Source: an uncultured Gemmatimonadales bacterium (GTDB taxonomy: Bacteria; Gemmatimonadota; Gemmatimonadetes; Gemmatimonadales; GWC2-71-9). From it: 64,000 bases of DNA. The position numbers were made by a program, and so were the translations under genes. The DNA lies in NCBI GenBank assembly GCA_963771275.1, contig CAVYSW010000006.1, positions 128,001-192,000 on the forward strand, written 5' to 3'. Every line of letters starts with the position of its first letter. Positions within the stretch are counted from its first letter, which is position 1. Below, piece after piece: positions 10,116-22,477 of this stretch. The notes under the pieces were generated by a model. That model was not told the origin of the DNA. It saw only the letters and a program-made list of their open reading frames with translations, and did no database searches.

Positions 10116-12260
10116 CTAGGGTCGGTGGATGCCCACCACCCGACCCGCTTGATCAACCCGCAGGATCGGCAGCCGGAGAATGTCATCCTTCATCTCGATC
10201 ACGCGACCCCCGCCGATCCCCTGCAGGGCCGGCGGCACGGGCCACGCGTACGAATCGGCATCCGAGTAGTTCACCAGGTAGTTCATGTCCCAGAACGACG
10301 CCAGCGTGACGATGCTCAGGGGATTCGTACCGGGGTTCAGGTACCCCGTCATGAGCTCCTGATCGAGTACCGATTCGCGCCAATGGCCGTTGACGGTCCC
10401 GGCCCCACATGGGCCGGGCGCGCCCACGCAGTTCTCGGCGGGGACCTTCGCCCCGGCGACATAGCTCGAGCCCCCGACCTGATCGAACGCCGCCAACGCG
10501 TGGGTACCGATGAAATGCGGATCGGTGATGCAATTGGTCGGGGACGGGCAAGGCCCCGCCAACAGGCTGAAGGGCGGGTTGTTCCACAGGGTGCCATAGC
10601 CAAGCACATGCCCCATTTCATGGAGAATCACGAGGCTCAACTGGCCGCTCGACTCCAGGTCCGCGAGGTCGGCCTTGTCGAAGTGCATGACGCCGAGGAC
10701 GGTGAGGCCCGAGCTGCTGCGAATGCGGCAAGGACCCGCTTGCCCCAGGACGTTGCCCGCGCCGTCGATCGAGTCGACCTTGGCGAAGATCAGGACGTCA
10801 TCCACGGTTTCATTGATCGCGGGAAGGTCCGGGAAGTCCGTCCCGCACGCAGTGCCGGCGCCGAGGTTCACGGGGATGTCCGTGAGATCGCCGAAGATCA
10901 GCGTCTGCCATTTTGCCTGGGCCGCGGCAAACGCCGCCTGCTGATTCGCCGTGGGCTGCTGCGTGCCGAAGTAGCGAATCACGATGTTGAACGCCGCGCT
11001 CTGCCCGGTGGCCGCGAAGCTCACCGGCGTCAGGGCGCCCGACGACGCCTGGACCGTGTTCGATCCGCCCCCGATCGTCCACCCGACCGACGCCAGGCCA
11101 TTCGCGTCCGTCACGGCGCTTGCGGCGGTGAGGCTGCCGCCCCCGCTGGTCACGGCGAAGTCCACCGTGACGCCCTGGACGCCGGCGCCGATCTGATCCG
11201 CCACCTTCACGGTGGGCGGCAGGTTCACGGGCTTCGCTTCGAGGCCGGTGAGGTTGTCACCCTGGACCTTGACCAGACTCGTGACGACTTGTGACGCCGC
11301 CGTTGCCGAGAACGTCGCGGGGGAGCCCCCGCTCAGACCCGCCGCCGTGGCGGTGAGGGTCTGCGCGCCCGTGGAGGCGCCCAGCGTCCATTCGACGGCC
11401 GCTCGCCCGGTGGCGTCCGTCGTCACGGTTGCCGGGCTGACGGTGCCCCCACCAGTCGCCGCCGCGAACGCCACCTGATATCCGCCGGCGAACGCGTTCC
11501 CATAGGCGTCGGTGACGCGCACGACGACCGACTCCGGGAGCGCCTGACTGGAGGTCCCGAGCTGGTTGTCTCCCGACACTTTCGCAAGGGAGTCCGCCAC
11601 GTCAGCCGTGGCCGTGGCCGTGAACTGAGCCGAGCGGTCGCCCCCGTGACGGTCGCCGTCACTCGATGCGCGGTCCCCGACACCGTCCCGAGCGTGAATT
11701 GGGTCGTCGCGCGCCCGGTAGCTCCGATCGGCACCGACGCCTGCGTCACACTCCCGTTTCCCTGCGTCACCGCGAACCCGATGCTACCGCTGGCGACCGA
11801 GCCCGGCACCACGTTCCCTTGGCTGTCCTGTGCTTCAACCTCGAGCGCGGTCCCGAGCTGTGTTCCCACCGTACCGGTCTGCGCGTCCCCGCCCGTCTTG
11901 GCGAGCTGCGCCACCACCTGCGCGACCGTCACGCTGGCGTTCGCGCTGTGCGTGCCCGACGTGGCGGTGACTTGCGTCTGTCCGTTCGCGACGGCGGTCA
12001 CCATCCCATTCGTCGTGCCCACCGTCGCGATGGCCGGATTCGCGCTGTTCCACGTGACCGTCTGGCCGGTCATGGCCTGTCCGCTCTGGTCCTTGACCGT
12101 CGCCGTGATCGTCTGGCTCGCGCCCAAGCGCGTTCAGGGTGACCGCGGTGGCACTCAGCGAGATGGACGTGGGGACCGGAACCGGCGGGCCGCTTTCGCC
12201 GCAGGCGGCAAGCGCCATGGCGGCGGCCGCGAGCAGGGCGGTCGAACGAGAGTGGTGCAT
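10116..12260 (-). CDS. Lipoprotein with bacterial Ig-like repeats and C-terminal M8 (leishmanolysin-like) zinc metallopeptidase; two frameshifts as sequenced
   Basis: ATG 12260, MHHSRSTALLAAAAMALAAC lipobox. The frame moves into ORF 11423..12127 near 12124 and into ORF 10116..11600 near 11633. Ig-like repeats (GDxQ-G...TDAxGxA). HEMGHVLG, GHWRE, ELMTG. Confidence 0.82.
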
Positions 12261-12287
12261 CGAGATTCCTGGTGAGGGGCTGGCGCC

Positions 12288-12316
12288 AAAGTAGGAGAAC
12301 CCCGACCGGAGAGCAA
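12288..12316 (-). promoter_or_regulatory. Putative sigma70 promoter of the M8 lipoprotein gene
   Basis: Minus strand TTGCTC-N17-TACTTT, 27 nt upstream of ATG 12260. Confidence 0.5.
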
Positions 12317-12324
12317 GGACGATA

Positions 12325-12453
12325 GCCGACAGCCGAGGGCCGACGGGACCGGAGCCCGATTGTGACACAGCTCACCGACGCAACCCGCCGGCTTTCAAAG
12401 CCCTGGTCGGCTCTCGGCTCTCGGCTCTCGGCTCTCGGCCATCGGTCCTTCGG
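12325..12453. repeat. Inverted heptamer tandem-repeat array (GCCGANN x3 ... CTCTCGG x4 plus 2 degenerate copies)
   Basis: CTCTCGG at 12411-12438, then CCATCGG and TCCTTCGG. Complementary GCCGACA/GCCGAGG/GCCGACG at 12325-12345. Abuts the S9 stop codon. Confidence 0.8.
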
Positions 12454-14835: not shown

Positions 14836-15546
14836 TCAGAATTTCACGGCGTGAACGATCACCCCGCTCGCCGTCCCGAGCAATGCCCCAGCCAGCACAT
14901 CGGAGGGAAAGTGCTTGCCGGCGGTGACGCGCATCACGCCGACGCCGGCTGCGGCCACGAAACCGAGCCAGCCCGGCGCGCCCGGGCGTCCCGTCAGGTC
15001 CCGGCGGGCGAGCCAGTACGTTGTGGCGAGCGCGAACGCCATGCTGACGTGCCCCGAGGGAAACGAGCGCAGGTTGTCGCCGTTGCCCGCGGCGGCGACG
15101 GCACCGTCCGTGTACAGGACCGGCCGCGTCCGTCCCACCGCCGCCTTGAGCATCTCGGTCGCCCCTTCGGCCCACAGGCCCGCCTGCACGGCCGCCACCA
15201 GGTACGGGGTCCCCCGCTCGCGCCGTCCCAGATCCACCGCCACGGCGGCACCGAGGCCCAGCAGCGCGACGCTGCTGGCGGTGTTCCAGGTGGGGATCGC
15301 ATCGTGCACCGCCCAGCGGTCGAACCCCGGCAGATCCGCCCGATTGCATGGCGCGCAGGGCGCACTGTCGGGACCCCAGCCGAACAGCCGGGGCGCGACC
15401 GCGAGGCCCGCCGCGACGCCGCCCGAGATGATGTCGCCGGGGCGAACGGCCGGCAGTCTGGCCGCCTGGGCCGTCAGCAGCTCCGGGAGGGCTAAAGCGC
15501 CCACCAGCAGCAAGATGCGCGATCGCGTCGAGGGCTTGTTTCCCAT
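14836..15546 (-). CDS. PAP2-family phosphatase
   Basis: C-terminal part of ORF 14836..16761, from ATG 15546. Canonical C1 KAAVGRTRP, C2 SFPSGH, C3 RVTAGKHFPSD. Confidence 0.85.
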   Translation of the reverse strand: MGNKPSTRSRILLLVGALALPELLTAQAARLPAVRPGDIISGGVAAGLAVAPRLFGWGPDSAPCAPCNRADLPGFDRWAVHDAIPTWNTASSVALLGLGAAVAVDLGRRERGTPYLVAAVQAGLWAEGATEMLKAAVGRTRPVLYTDGAVAAAGNGDNLRSFPSGHVSMAFALATTYWLARRDLTGRPGAPGWLGFVAAAGVGVMRVTAGKHFPSDVLAGALLGTASGVIVHAVKF

Positions 15547-15627: not shown

Positions 15628-16830
15628 GTGGAAACGCAGACGCTGCAACACATCGCGCTGTTCGAGAAATGTAAGGGCTTCACCCGCGCGCGCGAGGTCC
15701 AGGCAGCGGGCCTGTACCCTTACTTCAAGCCCATCTCCAAGGCCGAGGACACGGTCGTCGTGATCGAGGGCAAGGAGCGGGTGATGATGGGGTCGAACAA
15801 CTACCTCGGCCTCACGCACCACCCGCGCGTTCTCGAGGCCGCCAAGCGGGCGCTCGAGCAGTTCGGCTCCGGCTGCACCGGCAGCCGGTTCCTGAACGGT
15901 ACGCTCGATCTGCACGAGCAGCTCGAGGCGCGCCTCGCAGAGTTTTTCGGCAAGGAGGCCGGGCTCGTCTTCTCGACCGGGTACCAGGCCAACCTCGGCG
16001 TGATCTCGGGCCTCGTGGGGCGCGGCGACATCGTCTTCCTCGACAAGCTCGATCATGCGTCGATCGTGGACGGCGCCAAGATGTCGTTCGGCGAGACCGA
16101 GCGCTTCAACCACGGCAATCTCGATCAGCTCGATCTGCTGCTGCAGCGCTACGCCGACAGCGGCAAGATGATCATCGTGGATGGCGTGTTCTCGATGGAG
16201 GGCGACATCGCGAACGTGCCGGGGCTGGTGAAGCTCGCCCAGAAGCACAGCGCGGCGCTCGCCCTCGACGATGCCCACGCCGTCGGCGTGCTCGGCCCAC
16301 GCGGGGACGGCACCGCGGCGCACTACGGCCTGACGGACCAGGTCGATCTCATCGTCGGCACGTTCTCCAAGTCGCTCGCGTCGATCGGCGGATTCGTGGT
16401 CGGTGACGAGACGGTGATTCACTACCTCAAGCACCACAGCCGGCCGCTGATCTTCACCGCCGCGCTGCCGCCCGCCAACACGGCCGGGGTGCTCGCGGCC
16501 CTCGAGATCATGATCAGCGAGCCCGAGCGCCGCGAGCAGCTGTGGGAGAACGCGCGCCAGCTGCAGAAGGGGTTCCGCGAGCTGGGCTACGACATCGGCG
16601 CCACCCAGACCCCGATCGTCCCCGTGGTGATCGGCACGCTGGAGGAGACGTTCATGTTCTGGCGGCGCCTGTTCGATGCCGGCGTGTTCACCAACCCCGT
16701 GGTCCCACCGGCGGTGCCGCCGGACGGCTGCCGCCTGCGCACGAGCCTCATGGCGACGCACACGTCCCAGCAGATCGACTTCGCCCTCGACCGGTTCGCG
16801 GCCATCGGGAAGGAAATGGGGGTCATTTGA
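15628..16830 (+). CDS. spt: Serine palmitoyltransferase (PLP alpha-oxoamine synthase)
   Basis: LYPYF, GSNNYLGL, GCTGSRFLNGT, DHASIVDG, DDAH, GTFSKSLAS (SPT-type Lys motif), RPLIFTAALPP. Coupled to a bCerS-like gene. Confidence 0.85.
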   Translation: METQTLQHIALFEKCKGFTRAREVQAAGLYPYFKPISKAEDTVVVIEGKERVMMGSNNYLGLTHHPRVLEAAKRALEQFGSGCTGSRFLNGTLDLHEQLEARLAEFFGKEAGLVFSTGYQANLGVISGLVGRGDIVFLDKLDHASIVDGAKMSFGETERFNHGNLDQLDLLLQRYADSGKMIIVDGVFSMEGDIANVPGLVKLAQKHSAALALDDAHAVGVLGPRGDGTAAHYGLTDQVDLIVGTFSKSLASIGGFVVGDETVIHYLKHHSRPLIFTAALPPANTAGVLAALEIMISEPERREQLWENARQLQKGFRELGYDIGATQTPIVPVVIGTLEETFMFWRRLFDAGVFTNPVVPPAVPPDGCRLRTSLMATHTSQQIDFALDRFAAIGKEMGVI

Positions 16831-17960
16831 GCGAGGCCGCGGCGGTCCGGCCGGTACGGTCGGCCGCTGACCTACGCCGTTTCATCGCTCTACCGTACCA
16901 ATTGCACCGTGGGGACCCCTACTGGGTCCCCGCGTTGCGTCGGGACGTCCGGAAGGTGCTCGACCGGGGCAAGAACCCGTTCTTCGCGCACGCAGACGCG
17001 GAGCTGTTGCTGGCGGAGCGACGGAGCGGCGGGCGCGGCACGGTCGTCGGGCGCATCGCGGCGATCCACAACCAGGCCCACAACGACTTCCAGGGCGATC
17101 ACGCCGGGTTCTTCGGGTTCTTCGAGTGCATCGACGACCAGGGGGTCGCCAACCGGTTGTTCGACGCCGCGGCTGCCTGGCTCGAGCCCCGCGGCCTCGA
17201 CACGCTGCGGGGACCGGCCTCGTTCTCGACGAACGAGGAGTGCGGGCTGCTGGTCGACGGCTTCGACACGCCGCCGACCCTGCTGAACCCCCACAACCCG
17301 CGCTACTACGTGGGATTGGTCGAGCGCGCGGGCTTCCACAAGGCCAAGGATCTGATCCAGTACCGCCTCGAGAACCCGGAGATGCCGGAGCGGCTGATTC
17401 GGGGGGCGAAGCTGCTTGCCGAGCGGAAGCACATCACCCTCCGCCGGATCGACATGAAGCACTTCGACGCCGAAGTCGAGCAGATCAAGCGCGTGTACAA
17501 CGCGGCGTGGGAGAAGAACTGGGGCTTCGTGCCAATGACCGACGCGGAGATGGATCAACTGGCCGCGCAGCTCAAGCCCCTGGTGGTCCCCGACCTCGCC
17601 GTGTTTGCGCACCAGGGCGACAAGGTGATCGGGTTCGGGCTCGCGCTCCCCGACTTCAACGTGGCGCTCAAGACCAATCCCTCGGGCCGGTTCTTCCCCG
17701 GCATCCTCGGGATCCTGTGGGCCGCCCGCGGCATCCGCCGCATCCGCATCATCGCCCTCGGCCTGCTCAAGGAGTTCCGCGGCAGCGGCGCGGATGGCCT
17801 GCTGTATCACTGGATCTGGCAAAAGGGCTACGCGCTGGGGTATCGCTGGGGTGAGGCAGGCTGGATCCTCGAAGACAACCTCGCGATGACGAACGGACTG
17901 CTCCGCATGGGCTTCCAGCCCTACAAGACGCTGCGGATGTACGACCGCGCCCTGACGTGA
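16827..17960 (+). CDS. bcerS: Bacterial ceramide synthase (tandem GNAT-fold N-acyltransferase)
   Basis: TTG start overlaps the spt stop (TTGA). Motifs DPYWVP..NPFF, GRIAA, GFFGFFE, RGP..STNEECGLLVDGF, NPRYY, YNAAWEKNWGFVP, LPDFN, EAGWILEDN. Confidence 0.8.
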   Translation: MSEAAAVRPVRSAADLRRFIALPYQLHRGDPYWVPALRRDVRKVLDRGKNPFFAHADAELLLAERRSGGRGTVVGRIAAIHNQAHNDFQGDHAGFFGFFECIDDQGVANRLFDAAAAWLEPRGLDTLRGPASFSTNEECGLLVDGFDTPPTLLNPHNPRYYVGLVERAGFHKAKDLIQYRLENPEMPERLIRGAKLLAERKHITLRRIDMKHFDAEVEQIKRVYNAAWEKNWGFVPMTDAEMDQLAAQLKPLVVPDLAVFAHQGDKVIGFGLALPDFNVALKTNPSGRFFPGILGILWAARGIRRIRIIALGLLKEFRGSGADGLLYHWIWQKGYALGYRWGEAGWILEDNLAMTNGLLRMGFQPYKTLRMYDRALT

Positions 17961-18931
17961 GAGCGCTGGTGACGGGCGGGACCGGCTTCGTCGGGTCCCA
18001 CCTCGTGGAGCATCTCCTCGCCGCCGGTCACGAGGTCGTCTGCTACGCGCGAAACGCCGCCAAGGCCGAAGGCCTGTTCACCGAGCGTCGCCCCCAGGTG
18101 TTCGAGGGCTCGCTGTTCGACGGGGCCGCGCTGCGGCAGGCGATGACCGGCGCGGACGTGATCTTCCACGTCGCGGCGCTCACGGCCGCCCGCTCCCGGC
18201 GCGAGCTGTTCCGGGTCAACGAGGACGCGACGCGCCAGGTGCTCGCCGCGGCGCCGCCCGCACTGCGGCGCTTCGTCTACGTCAGCTCGCTGGCGGCGGC
18301 CGGACCGACGACCCGCGGCCGACAGCTCCAGGGCGGCGAGCCCGAGCGGCCGGTCACGCACTACGGCGCGAGCAAGCTGGCCGGCGAGCTCGCGGTGCGG
18401 GCGGCCCCGGTCCCCTGGACGGTCGTGCGGCCTCCCGCCGTGTACGGCCCGCGGGACGTGGAGCTGCTGCGGGTGTTCCGGATGGCGGCCAAGGGCGTCC
18501 TGCCGCAGTTCGGCGACGGGACGCAGGAACTGTCGCTGGTCTACGTCGAAGATCTGGCTCGCGCGCTCGCTGCCGCCGCGATCTCGCCCCAGACGGCGGG
18601 CCGGATCTACTACGCGACCCACCCGGACATCGTGCGCCAGCGTGCGCTGGCCGGCGCCATCGCCCGTGCCGTGCAGCCCGACCGCTCGCCGCTGATCATC
18701 GCGCTCCCGCTCCCGGTTGCCCGGATCGGCCTGTGGATCACGGGAGCGGCGGCGTACGTCGCGGGGCGGACCACCGTGCTCTCGCTCGACAAGGCCAACG
18801 AGTTCCTGGCGGGGGCGCTGACGTGCTCGCCAGCCGCCCTGGAGCGCGACACCGGTTGGACGGCGAGCTACTCGCTCGCGGCGGGTCTCGCCAAGACCGT
18901 CGCCTGGTACCGCGCGCAGCGATGGCTCTGA
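17957..18931 (+). CDS. cerR: Extended SDR NAD-dependent epimerase/dehydratase, probable ceramide (3-keto) reductase
   Basis: TGGTGFVG, SSLAA, YGASK, VYGP. GTGA overlap with bcerS. The specific function is inferred from context. Confidence 0.65.
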   Translation: MRALVTGGTGFVGSHLVEHLLAAGHEVVCYARNAAKAEGLFTERRPQVFEGSLFDGAALRQAMTGADVIFHVAALTAARSRRELFRVNEDATRQVLAAAPPALRRFVYVSSLAAAGPTTRGRQLQGGEPERPVTHYGASKLAGELAVRAAPVPWTVVRPPAVYGPRDVELLRVFRMAAKGVLPQFGDGTQELSLVYVEDLARALAAAAISPQTAGRIYYATHPDIVRQRALAGAIARAVQPDRSPLIIALPLPVARIGLWITGAAAYVAGRTTVLSLDKANEFLAGALTCSPAALERDTGWTASYSLAAGLAKTVAWYRAQRWL

Positions 18932-19797
18932 CCGCCACCGACAAACTGATCGCCGGCTATCTCGGATTCGTCACCGTGGTGCTGCTGGCGCGCGGCCCGC
19001 TCGCCGACGGCACGCCCTGGCTGCTCGCCGCGCACCTGTTGTTCGGTCTGGCGTTGCTCGCCATCCGGCGCCTGTCCCCGGGGGGCCGGGCGGGGCGCGT
19101 CGTGCATGCCTTCTACCCCCTGCTCCTGCTCAGCGCGCTCTACGGGGAGATCGGCGTGCTCAACACCCGCGTGGGCCTGGCCGCGATCCTCGGGCACGAC
19201 GCCTTGCTCCAGCGCTGGGAGGCGGCGGTCTTCGGCACGCAGGTGTCGTACGAGTGGATTCGCCAGGCGCCTTCGGTGTTCTGGTCGGGCGTGCTGCACG
19301 CGGCCTACGCGTCGTACTACCCGATGATCCTGCTGCCGGCCCCGCTCCTCGCGGCACGGGGCGACTGGGACGGCGCGCGGCGCGTCGTGTTCACGATGCT
19401 GCTGGCGTACGTGGCGTGCTACCTGGTGTTCCTGCTGTACCCGGTGGCGGGGCCCAACTATGCGTTCCCGCACCCGACCGGAGCGGTGCGCGAGGTGTGG
19501 AGCGCCCGGCTGGTGTACGCCGTGCTGAGCCGGGGGTCGTCGGTCGGTGCGGCGTTCCCTTCCTCGCACGTCGCCGCCACCGTCGCCGCCGTCGTGGCCG
19601 TGTGGCGCGCGTGGCGCCCGCTCGGCGCCGTGCTCGTCATTCCGGGCATCCTGCTCACGGTCGGCGTGGTCTACTGCCAGATGCACTATGGGCTCGATGC
19701 GCTGGCCGGGGCCGCCGTGGGAGGCGCCGCCGCGATGCTCGCCCCGCGGCTGTGGACCGCGTGGTCGGGCATGCGCGCCACCACCGCCCTCGCCTGA
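18922..19797 (+). CDS. Membrane PAP2-superfamily protein, Aur1/inositol-phosphorylceramide-synthase-like phosphotransferase
   Basis: ATG 18922 overlaps the end of cerR. Multiple TM helices. YASYY, YPVAGP, AAFPSSHVA, YCQMHYGLD. Lacks the phosphatase C1 KxxxxxxRP motif. Confidence 0.72.
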   Translation: MALTATDKLIAGYLGFVTVVLLARGPLADGTPWLLAAHLLFGLALLAIRRLSPGGRAGRVVHAFYPLLLLSALYGEIGVLNTRVGLAAILGHDALLQRWEAAVFGTQVSYEWIRQAPSVFWSGVLHAAYASYYPMILLPAPLLAARGDWDGARRVVFTMLLAYVACYLVFLLYPVAGPNYAFPHPTGAVREVWSARLVYAVLSRGSSVGAAFPSSHVAATVAAVVAVWRAWRPLGAVLVIPGILLTVGVVYCQMHYGLDALAGAAVGGAAAMLAPRLWTAWSGMRATTALA

Positions 19798-19896: not shown

Positions 19897-20583
19897 TCAG
19901 CCGCCGTTCGGTGACGCGGCCGGGGCGCTCCCCCCCCGCTTCCGCACCATCCAGATCACCAGGTACAAGGCGATCGTGCCGAACGCGACGGCCGACAGCA
20001 CGGGTGCGCTGACGTGCCAATACAGGCCGAGCGCCGCGAAGAACCAGAGGCGCGGGAACCGGCCGAGGAACGTGGCGAACAGGTAACGGCGGATGGGGTA
20101 GCCGGCGAGCGGCGCGACCACCCGCACCGCCCAATACGGGAGCGGCGACCAGGCGCAGAGCCAGACCGTGAAGAATGGTGCCCGCTCGAACAGGCGGACG
20201 GTCATCCGCACGAAGTGGCTCTCACGCGCAGGAGAGAACGACGCGAGGTGCAGTACCCGCCCGTAGAGGTGGAAGTTGAGGAATTCGACGTAGAGAATCC
20301 CGAGAATGCCGACGACCGCGATCAGCCACGGGGCGTAGATCCGGCCGAACAGCATCAAAATCGGCTCGTAGGTCGCCGGCATGAAGAAGCCGAGCGGCCC
20401 ATTCACCCAGATCGTGACGACGGTGAACGCGACGAGGCCGGCCGCGGTCGGGGACCCGAGCAGCATCACCCCGATCCCGGCGAGCGCGAGCGCGGCCGAG
20501 CCCCGGAGCAGCCCGTCCCACACGAAATTGCCGTGGCGACGGAGCAGGAGGCCAAGGATGCCCGGCGCGCGGGCGGCGGTCAC
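19897..20583 (-). CDS. DedA/VTT (SNARE-associated) membrane protein
   Basis: Hydrophobic. PxxxEP re-entrant motif, SPLPY, RRYLFATFLGRFPR. GTGA overlap with the upstream gene. Confidence 0.7.
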   Translation of the reverse strand: MTAARAPGILGLLLRRHGNFVWDGLLRGSAALALAGIGVMLLGSPTAAGLVAFTVVTIWVNGPLGFFMPATYEPILMLFGRIYAPWLIAVVGILGILYVEFLNFHLYGRVLHLASFSPARESHFVRMTVRLFERAPFFTVWLCAWSPLPYWAVRVVAPLAGYPIRRYLFATFLGRFPRLWFFAALGLYWHVSAPVLSAVAFGTIALYLVIWMVRKRGGSAPAASPNGG

Positions 20584-22007
20584 CCGGGCCCGCCGGTCTC
20601 GGGGAGTACCCCGTCGATGCCCTGCGGCACCGTGACGCCGAGGTGGTCGAGCATCAACGGGAAGAGATCAGCCGTGCGGAGCGGGCCGCGCAGCGGGACG
20701 TTGCTCGCCAGGAGGCACCGCATGTGCTCGCGGTGCAGCGATCCGTGACCGGATCGGTGCTCGGGGATCTCCCAGTCGCGGCGCAGGTCCGCGCCCTCGG
20801 CGGCGATCACCACCAGGTCCCCGGTGCGGCCGGAGCGGAACAGCTGGAGCAGTTGCGTCGGGGCGTCGGGGAAGCGCGCGTCGATGGTGCTGGCGAGCCA
20901 GGCGCGGTCGGAGCGCGTCGCGGCCGGGCCGAGCTCGAGCACATCGGCCGTTGCGGGCTCGTACGCGGTCCCGCCCGGCGCCTGGTGCAGGCGGGCGCGC
21001 CCGTCCCGTGAGACCACGGTCACGCCGTCGCCATCGCTGCCCGCCACCAGCGCGATGCCGGGACGTGTGGCAAGATGCTGCACGGCGTGGCGCGGAATGC
21101 CGGGCACGGCGCCGGCCTCGACCTCGCCGATCGTGAAGCGCCGCTCGCGGCGGCGGCCGGGCAGCCAGTACACCTGGACGGACGCGTTGCCGGACACCAT
21201 TACCGCCGCCAGGGGATCGCGGCGCCAGATGATCGGGTGACGCAGCGTGGCCAGCCCCATGCCCTCGAGCGCCAACGCCACATCGGTGTGGCGGTCCACC
21301 CGTGACAGGCCGTGATCGCTCACCAGCAGGGTGAGGTGGTCACCGGTAAAGCCGCCCGCCGCCGCGTAGTCGCCCACCAGCCGGTCGAACTCGCGGTAGG
21401 TTGCGAGCACGGCCGGGTGGCGCGGGTCATGGAAATGCGTGACGCCATCGACGCCGGGGAAGACGGCGAAGACGAAGCGGTGGCGTTCGCGCGCCACCGC
21501 GGCGAGCGCGCGTCCCACGGCCCGCTCGAGCGTGCCGTAGCCGCCGGTGTAGTGGGCCAGGCCGCCCCACAGCTTCCGGGCTCCGGCGGCGCGCTCGCGG
21601 CTGGGGCCGAGGCCCCGCACGAACGGGGAGCACAGCGCGACCGATTCGGGAATCAGATCGAACAGGGTCGCGATACCGGGTCGGAGATCGGTGTTGAGCT
21701 GGCCGCCCTGATAGCCGCAGTAGCTGCGCAGATGCCGGCGATCATGCCACCAGTCGCCGCCGTAGCGCGCGACGTCGAGCCAGCGGATCCCCGGTACGTC
21801 GCAGGTCCCGGGATAGCAGCCAGTGAGGAACGGGAGATACGCGACGCCGGTGGTGGACGGAAACACCGTGGCCGCGGGAACGGTCCCGCCCGGCTCGAGC
21901 AGGTAGCGCGCGATGTTCGGCAGGTCGCCGCGGGCCGCGAGGTCCGCGAACACATCGTGCCGCGCGCCGTCGAGCAGCAGCACGACCGCCCGACGATCGG
22001 CGTGCAC
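20580..22007 (-). CDS. Alkaline phosphatase superfamily, nucleotide pyrophosphatase/phosphodiesterase type
   Basis: LLDGAR, TVFPSTT (Thr nucleophile), DGVTH, VSDHG, HGS. No signal peptide. Confidence 0.85.
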   Translation of the reverse strand: MHADRRAVVLLLDGARHDVFADLAARGDLPNIARYLLEPGGTVPAATVFPSTTGVAYLPFLTGCYPGTCDVPGIRWLDVARYGGDWWHDRRHLRSYCGYQGGQLNTDLRPGIATLFDLIPESVALCSPFVRGLGPSRERAAGARKLWGGLAHYTGGYGTLERAVGRALAAVARERHRFVFAVFPGVDGVTHFHDPRHPAVLATYREFDRLVGDYAAAGGFTGDHLTLLVSDHGLSRVDRHTDVALALEGMGLATLRHPIIWRRDPLAAVMVSGNASVQVYWLPGRRRERRFTIGEVEAGAVPGIPRHAVQHLATRPGIALVAGSDGDGVTVVSRDGRARLHQAPGGTAYEPATADVLELGPAATRSDRAWLASTIDARFPDAPTQLLQLFRSGRTGDLVVIAAEGADLRRDWEIPEHRSGHGSLHREHMRCLLASNVPLRGPLRTADLFPLMLDHLGVTVPQGIDGVLPETGGPG

Positions 22008-22477
22008 TAGCGGACGATGGTGAGCTGCGCCTTCATGCCCAGCATCTCATGCGGCGTGCAGTAGTAGCCGTACACGCCGGCGGGCAGGTCCGCGAACGAG
22101 ACCTCGTACGTCTGGCCCGGCCGCTCCAGCAGGGGCCCCGTGAGCTCGGTCAGCCGGTTGGGCATCGTTGCGTCGAGCAGCTGCGCGGCGCCAGTCGGGA
22201 TCTGATTCGCGTAGAACGCCACGTTGTGCATGCCGCCGCTCACGTTGACCCAGCGCACCACGTCGCCCACCCGGATGGTGAGCGCGGCGGGCTCGAAGAC
22301 GAAGCGCCCGTCGGGCGTTTCCATCATCCTCACCTCGCGAACGGTCGCGGTCCCGGACGTGGTCGCCGTCGCCGCCTGCGGCTGACCGGCCGACGGCATC
22401 TGGCCCTCCGTCTCGCCCCGGGGCCCGCGTCCACACGCCACCGCTGCCGCAGCAACGGTCACCACGAGCACTCGCAT
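22007..22477 (-). CDS. Plastocyanin/halocyanin-like blue copper lipoprotein
   Basis: Lipobox VAC; HNV...YYCTPHEMLGM type-1 copper ligands. Confidence 0.9.
   Translation of the reverse strand: MRVLVVTVAAAAVACGRGPRGETEGQMPSAGQPQAATATTSGTATVREVRMMETPDGRFVFEPAALTIRVGDVVRWVNVSGGMHNVAFYANQIPTGAAQLLDATMPNRLTELTGPLLERPGQTYEVSFADLPAGVYGYYCTPHEMLGMKAQLTIVR

Follow-up and report, generated by a model that had tools for sequence, protein, structure and literature searches.

In the window, which is a 64,000-nucleotide stretch from an uncultured Gemmatimonadales bacterium (GenBank assembly GCA_963771275.1, contig CAVYSW010000006.1, positions 128,001 to 192,000; source genome of 3.86 Mb, 96.7% complete), we have found an operon of four genes whose product is very probably ceramide and whose last gene, hereafter gene 4, encodes a membrane protein of an uncharacterised Aur1-fold subfamily. 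This subfamily is distinct from BT_1522, the inositol phosphorylceramide (IPC) synthase of Bacteroides, and is tied to cerR in two phyla; herein lies what is new, the ceramide core and bacterial Aur1-type transfer being already known. We consider it likely that gene 4 is a ping-pong phospho-head-group transferase, which would move the head group of a glycerophospholipid onto dihydroceramide with release of diacylglycerol (DAG). More tentatively, we put forward phosphatidylethanolamine (PE) as its most likely donor, so that gene 4 and its relatives become candidates for a bacterial ceramide-phosphoethanolamine (PE-dihydroceramide) synthase. The features of the operon, in coordinates of the window, are as follows.

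15628..16830, + strand: spt, serine palmitoyltransferase (alpha-oxoamine synthase), 400 aa, GTG start
16827..17960, + strand: bCerS-like N-acyltransferase (gene 2), 377 aa, TTG start inferred and overlapping the spt stop; the frame opens earlier, at 16542
17957..18931, + strand: CerR-like extended short-chain dehydrogenase/reductase (SDR; gene 3), 324 aa, GTG start
18922..19797, + strand: gene 4, Aur1-fold PAP2_3 membrane enzyme, 291 aa, ATG start
18922..18931, + strand: 10-nt overlap of the SDR stop with the PAP2_3 start, the SDR ending W-L-stop and gene 4 beginning M-A-L

The original prediction, made from the letters of the window, had placed four overlapping plus-strand genes here, and all four open reading frames (ORFs) are indeed present, with successive overlaps of 4, 4 and 10 nt; a promoter and terminator scan gave no signal beyond chance. 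The organism had been guessed to belong to the Gemmatimonadota, which agrees with the record titles of the 80 GTDB loci that we sampled as best matches to gene 4: 78 bear the name of a Gemmatimonadota group, and the other two read 'Bacterium HR33' and 'Bacillota'. Gene 4 also proved syntenic with spt across the phylum, with spt, cerS and sdr lying upstream of it on the same strand in 62 of the 64 loci that were assessable by virtue of at least 3.5 kb of upstream sequence. Counting by hand within the order, we found spt in 46 of 61 genomes, 34 of which have gene 4 within ~3.4 kb of spt on the same contig, and at least 4 of the remaining 12 are interrupted by contig ends. Across 201 genomes of the phylum, spt and the gene-4 subfamily occur together in 110, spt only in 10, the subfamily only in 4 and neither in 77, counts in which related genomes are not independent. 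Of the 40 sampled genomes of family f2, 36 are without spt. The record titled 'Bacillota bacterium' (L118, JBLMWC010000126.1) has all of the operon, at identities like those of Gemmatimonadales, beside a cupredoxin gene, and is probably mislabelled or misbinned.

Genes 1 to 3 had been read as a ceramide core of the Spt/bCerS/CerR type. Gene 1 carries the expected motifs of a serine palmitoyltransferase (SPT), LYPYF at position 29 and GTFSKS at position 244. Its top NCBIfam match is SerpalmtaseCFB with 537 bits vs. 397 for BioF, 377 for Kbl and 245 for HemA, while its top PDB matches are the bacterial SPTs 8guh/3a2b with 440 bits vs. at most 302 for Kbl/BioF-type entries. Judged by these scores rather than by a tree, the nearest characterised relatives of gene 1 appear to be SPTs and not BioF, Kbl or HemA, and no grouping with BioF or Kbl was seen; the genome has only one other alpha-oxoamine synthase, 34% identical to gene 1. 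Gene 2 had no Pfam, NCBIfam or PDB match and its single-sequence structure model (pLDDT 39) is unusable for judging the tandem-GNAT fold; a Streptomyces homologue, 40% identical, is annotated GNAT. As a proxy for Caulobacter, we used a Roseomonas locus found among plasmid-collection homologues of gene 2. Its order (spt-like aminotransferase, CDP-alcohol transferase, DAG-kinase family, LptF/G, cerS-position gene, nucleotidyltransferases, acyl-AMP ligase, SDR) matches the layout of the Caulobacter sphingolipid region as far as it is described in the part of PMC11324152 covered. Gene 2 and the Roseomonas protein at the position of cerS (CC_1154) share 37% identity over 392 columns, and gene 2 is the top match of that protein in this genome (1e-62). 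In the same manner, the Roseomonas SDR that comes after aasR, at the cerR position, finds gene 3 as its top match (6e-31; next 8e-6), and gene 3 itself was correctly called an extended SDR (PF01370/PF01073). Together with the SPT scores, these best matches bear out the predicted core.

By strong homology, Spt would turn serine and an acyl thioester into 3-ketosphinganine and, by best-hit orthology to the Caulobacter-like locus, bCerS would N-acylate 3-ketosphinganine and the SDR (CerR) would reduce the 3-keto group to yield dihydroceramide. By homology these are the same three core enzymes as Spt, bCerS (CC_1154, CCNA_01212) and CerR (CC_1164, CCNA_01222) in the accounts of the Caulobacter crescentus pathway that we drew on (PMC11324152, PMC11087976, bioRxiv 10.1101/2023.05.23.541633). 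In contrast to Caulobacter, however, they lie here in a single compact operon without an acyl-acyl carrier protein (ACP) synthetase or ACP, and the Spt is of the Bacteroidota (CFB) type. A second bCerS-like paralogue, 28% identical to gene 2, lies away from spt at G000:C9:108463-109563 (-), with similar ones in several relatives. In five genomes of family f3 (G042, G044, G046, G054, G058; e.g. loci L216, L217, L208) the sole cerS-like gene is such a distant unlinked paralogue (27-32%). In four of the five a single gene lies between spt and PAP2_3; where its identity was checked, in G042 and G044, it is an SDR. G058 retains only spt-SDR; in these five genomes either the distant paralogue acylates or lyso-sphingolipids are made.

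Gene 4, a polytopic protein, belongs to PF14378 (PAP2_3; 62.3 bits vs. a gathering threshold of 27) and has no PF14360 (PAP2_C) match at E<=0.01, which places it outside the sphingomyelin synthases (SMS/SMSr) by sequence. As had been described, it carries AFPSSH (position 211) and YxxxHYxxD (YCQMHYGLD, position 251) and lacks the phosphatase C1 motif; neither K-x6-RP nor PSGH was found in it, PVAGP standing in place of C1, whereas the neighbouring PAP2 phosphatase at 14836..15546, our positive control for the motif search, has both C1 and PSGH. The triad H216/H255/D259 does not vary among the 90 sequences of A2, a profile of the gene-4 family. In Foldseek, the confident structure model of gene 4 (pLDDT 86.8) had as its top match, and its sole match at E<=0.001, Aur1 with ceramide (9vj4; E 4.2e-4, TM 0.65, 296 columns). 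VIA-align gave Z 17.1 with 258 residues aligned (root-mean-square deviation, rmsd, 4.9) for Aur1 9ivc, vs. Z 16.1 with 161 aligned and rmsd 2.8 for LpxE. Profile A2 aligns with Aur1 over positions 12-278 and with PgpB/LpxE over the C-terminal motif only. Human SMSr is a ceramide phosphoethanolamine synthase, and PDB entry 8ijr has phosphoethanolamine in its title; SMSr/sphingomyelin synthase (8ijq, 8ijr) shares the LPT fold and the H-H-D triad with gene 4 but is a weaker structural match (Z 10.5-11.2, 8% identity).

The Aur1-type fold and catalytic triad claimed for gene 4 were thus recovered, Saccharomyces cerevisiae Aur1 (9ivc, 9vj4), likewise without a C1 motif, matching gene 4 best by fold along almost all of the chain. 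By profile alignment, Aur1 H255/H294/D298 and S253 correspond to H216/H255/D259 and S214 of gene 4 (Aur1 triad as given in PMC13133130). The two differ in that identity is ~16%, that PAAPPWY of Aur1 is PVAGPNY in gene 4, and that the auxiliary H293 and H157 of Aur1 are not kept (M254 and Y132 by profile alignment). Aur1 is the catalytic subunit of IPC synthase, with an essential triad and a two-step transfer via a phospho-histidine intermediate, as sections 9 and 11 of PMC13133130 describe. Transferring the mechanism of section 11 to gene 4, we surmise that D259 would activate H255, which would attack the glycerophospholipid phosphate as DAG leaves; a phospho-head-group-histidine intermediate would form, and H216 would activate the ceramide 1-OH as acceptor.

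Recognizing that gene 4 is a PAP2-superfamily member, with LpxE, PgpB and G6PC1 as its next structural matches and homologues automatically named 'membrane-associated phospholipid phosphatase', one might argue that it is a lipid phosphatase or a phospholipase-C-type hydrolase (e.g. on ceramide-1-phosphate or a phospholipid) with water as acceptor. LpxE and PgpB (6ebu, 5jki, 5jwy) do share with it the five-helix LPT core and the C3 histidine/aspartate; however, they cover only ~160-170 residues of gene 4, its extra N-terminal helices aligning with Aur1 only, and they need C1, whereas gene 4 has neither the K-x6-RP of C1 nor the PSGH glycine, which bind monoester phosphate. In addition, no homologue of the Roseomonas DAG-kinase-family protein, which occupies the ceramide-kinase position, was found in this genome (the CDP-alcohol-transferase-position protein had a weak match only), and a ceramide-phosphate substrate is therefore not evident. 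We regard a hydrolase as improbable and a transferase as the better account of gene 4.

The original prediction also held that a eukaryote-like transfer route would set this organism apart from other bacteria. This part has to be given up, since Aur1-type transfer in bacteria is already known from knockouts of the IPC synthase BT_1522 of B. thetaiotaomicron, an Aur1 homologue: its deletion abolishes PI-ceramide (PI, phosphatidylinositol), leaving <1% IPC with PE-ceramide unaltered, in the reported results available to us (PMC9246714, PMC8791184). Our BT_1522 reference was an orthologue with its whole cluster from metagenome locus L152, identified by the published BT_1523 primer and gene order. 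This orthologue matches Aur1 in the PDB at 1.5e-14, with PAAPPWY and HHY in common. Gene 4, on the other hand, is 26% identical to it over 114 aa (26 bits), with a profile match over 207 columns (probability 90.6); the orthologue scores 31 bits on A2 and had no match when searched against this genome. By these comparisons we take gene 4 to be an Aur1-fold enzyme of a separate subfamily and not an orthologue of BT_1522. Both are bacterial Aur1-fold H-H-D enzymes, and gene 4 is predicted to act on dihydroceramide as BT_1522 does, but BT_1522 is clustered with PI-synthesis genes and gene 4 with the ceramide core. The label 'IPC-synthase-like' therefore stands for the fold and triad of gene 4; it fails for sequence grouping with BT_1522/Aur1, gene 4 as a single sequence having no PDB match at E<=1 and, since it is much further from Aur1 than BT_1522 is, the label is not to be read as inositol-specific.

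Members of the gene-4 subfamily also occur in Bacteroidales. A search with gene 4 yielded one in Phocaeicola massiliensis, and the Phocaeicola protein in turn yielded records of B. finegoldii and Prevotella F0039. The motifs of gene 4 are present in these proteins, and their A2 scores are 161-170 bits. In a quick tree with SH-aLRT support only, the Bacteroidales proteins fall inside the gene-4 group, with BT_1522 on a long separate branch; because it is unrooted, is without an Aur1 sequence and has compositional bias in its Bacteroidota rows, this tree speaks for separation from BT_1522 and not for a direction of transfer. In B. finegoldii, UHF62_RS05335 (WP_237923849.1) overlaps the upstream SDR UHF62_RS05330 by 10 nt, and the junction is that of the window, the SDR ending W-L-stop and the PAP2 protein beginning M-A-L; this SDR is 27% identical to gene 3 (2e-37), its top match in the genome of the window (1.3e-26). 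In the 1.77-Mb record of Prevotella F0039, the Roseomonas cerR-position protein has a single match, which sits just upstream of the subfamily gene, and a cerS homologue lies elsewhere; this record also has a separate BT_1522-1525-type cluster, so both PAP2_3 subfamilies are found in one record. SDR-PAP2_3 coupling is conserved in two phyla, and PAP2_3-SDR fusions (P0241, P0265, P0271) exist as well. The subfamily gene adjoins dusB in both Bacteroidaceae records seen. The Phocaeicola protein has 5,530 homologues at E<=1e-20 among 5,638 candidates, counted without gene context, and its nearest Atlas clusters are mostly Bacteroidota; a viral-contig scan with it gave no match.

Such coupling might also arise if the SDR-PAP2_3 pair were a module for a different lipid (e.g. 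a non-sphingoid long-chain alcohol), merely co-transcribed with spt-cerS. An SDR-PAP2_3-SDR cassette without spt was seen in 5 of the 14 Gemmatimonadota regions examined, the fused SDRs of P0241 and P0265 are only locally similar to gene 3 (P0241: 36%, 168 columns), and the top NCBIfam match of gene 3 is HpnA, far under its cut-off. Against this, gene 3 is the clear best match of the CerR-position protein, spt-cerS-SDR triplets without gene 4 are found in Rubrobacter and Streptomyces, and the gene-4 subfamily co-occurs nearly perfectly with spt. A module for another lipid seems very improbable to us, and we retain CerR as the probable role of the SDR and the ceramide it would produce as the predicted acceptor of gene 4. 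The genome has a second gene-4-type paralogue, 36% identical, at G000:C10:753863-754933 (-), which elsewhere in Gemmatimonadota (L233, L234, L236, L237, L238) sits in the SDR-PAP2_3-SDR cassette; P0241 and P0265 belong to the same clade, and this cassette is possibly a second lipid-modifying module. The P0271 fusion was seen on one contig only and could have arisen artificially through a frameshift.

As to the head-group donor, PE, PI and probably phosphatidylglycerol (PG) can all be supplied, and gene content therefore does not decide between them. For PE, the genome has psd-pssA, with Psd in 61/61 relatives; for PG, PgsA-like and PgpA-like genes make a supply probable. For PI, there is an overlapping PIPS-MIPS pair outside the window, at G000:C6:94635-96660 (-), with PIPS 40% identical to the BT_1523 orthologue and MIPS 57% identical to the BT_1526 orthologue. 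The top PDB match of PIPS, a CDP-alcohol transferase, is a phosphatidylinositol(-phosphate) synthase, and the pair predicts phosphatidylinositol in Gemmatimonadales. PI is hence a possible donor, and the original prediction implied that gene 4 would be a PI-specific IPC synthase, i.e. that it would be another, divergent way of carrying out the reaction of BT_1522/Aur1. That reading draws on the presence of the PIPS-MIPS pair ~48 kb from the operon and of a PgpA similar to BT_1525, on the failure to find a BT_1522 orthologue in the genome and on a fold nearest to that of Aur1. However, MIPS does not track the operon, as it is order-wide (56/61 relatives) and includes 11/12 genomes of family f2, where 10/12 are without spt; Psd being order-wide as well, neither distribution discriminates between donors. 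Furthermore, Aur1 and BT_1522 have PAAPPWY and HHY where gene 4 has PVAGP and QMHY, and both subfamilies coexist in Bacteroidales, where loss of BT1522 is uncompensated according to the results of PMC8791184 at hand. We thus judge PI specificity unlikely.

We tentatively favor PE over PI, with ceramide phosphoethanolamine as the expected product, because in Bacteroidales the gene-4 subfamily is coupled to cerR, because it coexists there with a dedicated IPC synthase, and because PE-ceramide alone among universal Bacteroides sphingolipids lacks an assigned enzyme in the literature searched, to the extent that it was covered. Every Bacteroides tested makes PE-ceramide, and section 7 of a 2023 review gives no enzyme for it (PMC10191378). 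A 2022 search for a PE-ceramide synthase found no match, as stated in the part of PMC8791184 covered, and B. fragilis makes PE-ceramide without BT1522-1526, its cerR being BF9343_4240 (PMC8791184, bioRxiv 10.1101/2023.05.23.541633). We came upon no later assignment, including in the covered parts of PMC13510253 and PMC12724326, although subscription journals were largely outside this search and an assignment may exist.

Several of our results weigh against the reading of gene 4 as a PE-using transferase behind a ceramide core. None of the NCBIfam SPT models, which are lineage-specific, is matched by gene 1 at its curated cut-off (NF047600: 537 vs. 640 bits). The Z score of LpxE lies within 1 of that of Aur1, and both LpxE and PgpB beat Aur1 in total A2 profile E-value; in addition to the lack of a single-sequence PDB match, the likeness of the gene 4 profile to Aur1 is weak (E 2e-4). 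With both PIPS and MIPS encoded, PI is available too. Among the variant spt regions examined (n=20), the spt clusters of G034, G172, G088, G031, G038 and G058 are without gene 4 and show no evident replacement. The Bacteroidales evidence comes from three records, those of P. massiliensis, B. finegoldii and Prevotella F0039; the SDR-PAP2_3 pair is seen in two of the three, the Phocaeicola gene sitting at the end of its record, and the Prevotella pair lacks the 10-nt overlap. Lastly, gene 4 and the B. finegoldii protein share only 26% identity (215 columns), and the latter scores 70 bits with the unlinked C10 paralogue vs. 49 with gene 4; therefore, donor specificity may differ between the phyla.

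What would follow from a PE-using transferase goes beyond this genome. According to the portions of these papers that we drew on, Bacteroides membranes and vesicles contain PE-ceramide as one of their most abundant sphingolipids (PMC8791184), and in oral Bacteroidales it has attracted study as an immunomodulatory lipid (PMC13510253). Given that it lies directly behind a CerR-like gene there, the gene-4 family is a candidate for the PE-ceramide enzyme of Bacteroides, and gene neighborhood in two phyla points to one named gene, B. finegoldii UHF62_RS05335. If this is true, the PE-ceramide synthase of gut and oral Bacteroidales would be encoded by the PAP2 gene that directly follows cerR, and a large uncultured part of the Gemmatimonadota would make the same phosphosphingolipid; the operon also predicts phosphosphingolipids in about half of the sampled Gemmatimonadota genomes (110/201). 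Our search found no report of sphingolipids in Gemmatimonadota, but the list of Spt-like proteins from 40 phyla in the Black Sea study PMC11334938, of which a part was covered, may include the phylum.

Other spt clusters have different companions. Among those without gene 4, enzymes of other head-group types are often close by, in keeping with a head-group role for gene 4: GT4 glycosyltransferases in G130, G215, G049 and G053, and CDP-alcohol transferases in G144 and G117. In the latter two (loci L211 and L212, respectively), spt-cerS-SDR has on its flanks a CDP-alcohol phosphatidyltransferase gene and an ORF that is unassigned; L212 also has a class-III aminotransferase, a Gfo/Idh/MocA oxidoreductase and an LPG-synthase-like gene, and L211 a HAD hydrolase, an amino-cyclitol head-group pathway being possible for these neighborhoods. 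On plasmids of Actinomycetota, an aminotransferase-cerS-SDR triplet has behind it an LTA-synthase-family gene in Rubrobacter radiotolerans (L221) and a condensation-domain gene in Streptomyces sp. NBC_01001 (L222), which are candidates for other head-group or tailoring enzymes.

Outside the claimed operon, the window has the following neighboring genes, each with the number of the 80 related loci that keep it.

14836..15546, - strand: canonical PAP2 phosphatase, divergent from spt (PF01569, 76.6 bits; start inferred); 15/80 loci
19897..20583, - strand: VTT/DedA-type protein, convergent (Pfam); 10/80 loci
20580..22007, - strand: NPP-family phosphodiesterase, convergent (Pfam); 5/80 loci
22007..22477, - strand: cupredoxin, convergent (Pfam); 64/80 loci

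A role in turnover or flipping of the lipid of the operon is conceivable for the NPP enzyme and the DedA-type protein, but they are kept in only 5 and 10 of the 80 loci. Further upstream, at 10116-12368 on the minus strand, the consecutive ORFs 10116-11600 and 11423-12127, which have Ig-like repeats and a HEMGH zinc-protease motif, lie in different frames, and these two ORFs are perhaps a single gene split by a frameshift.

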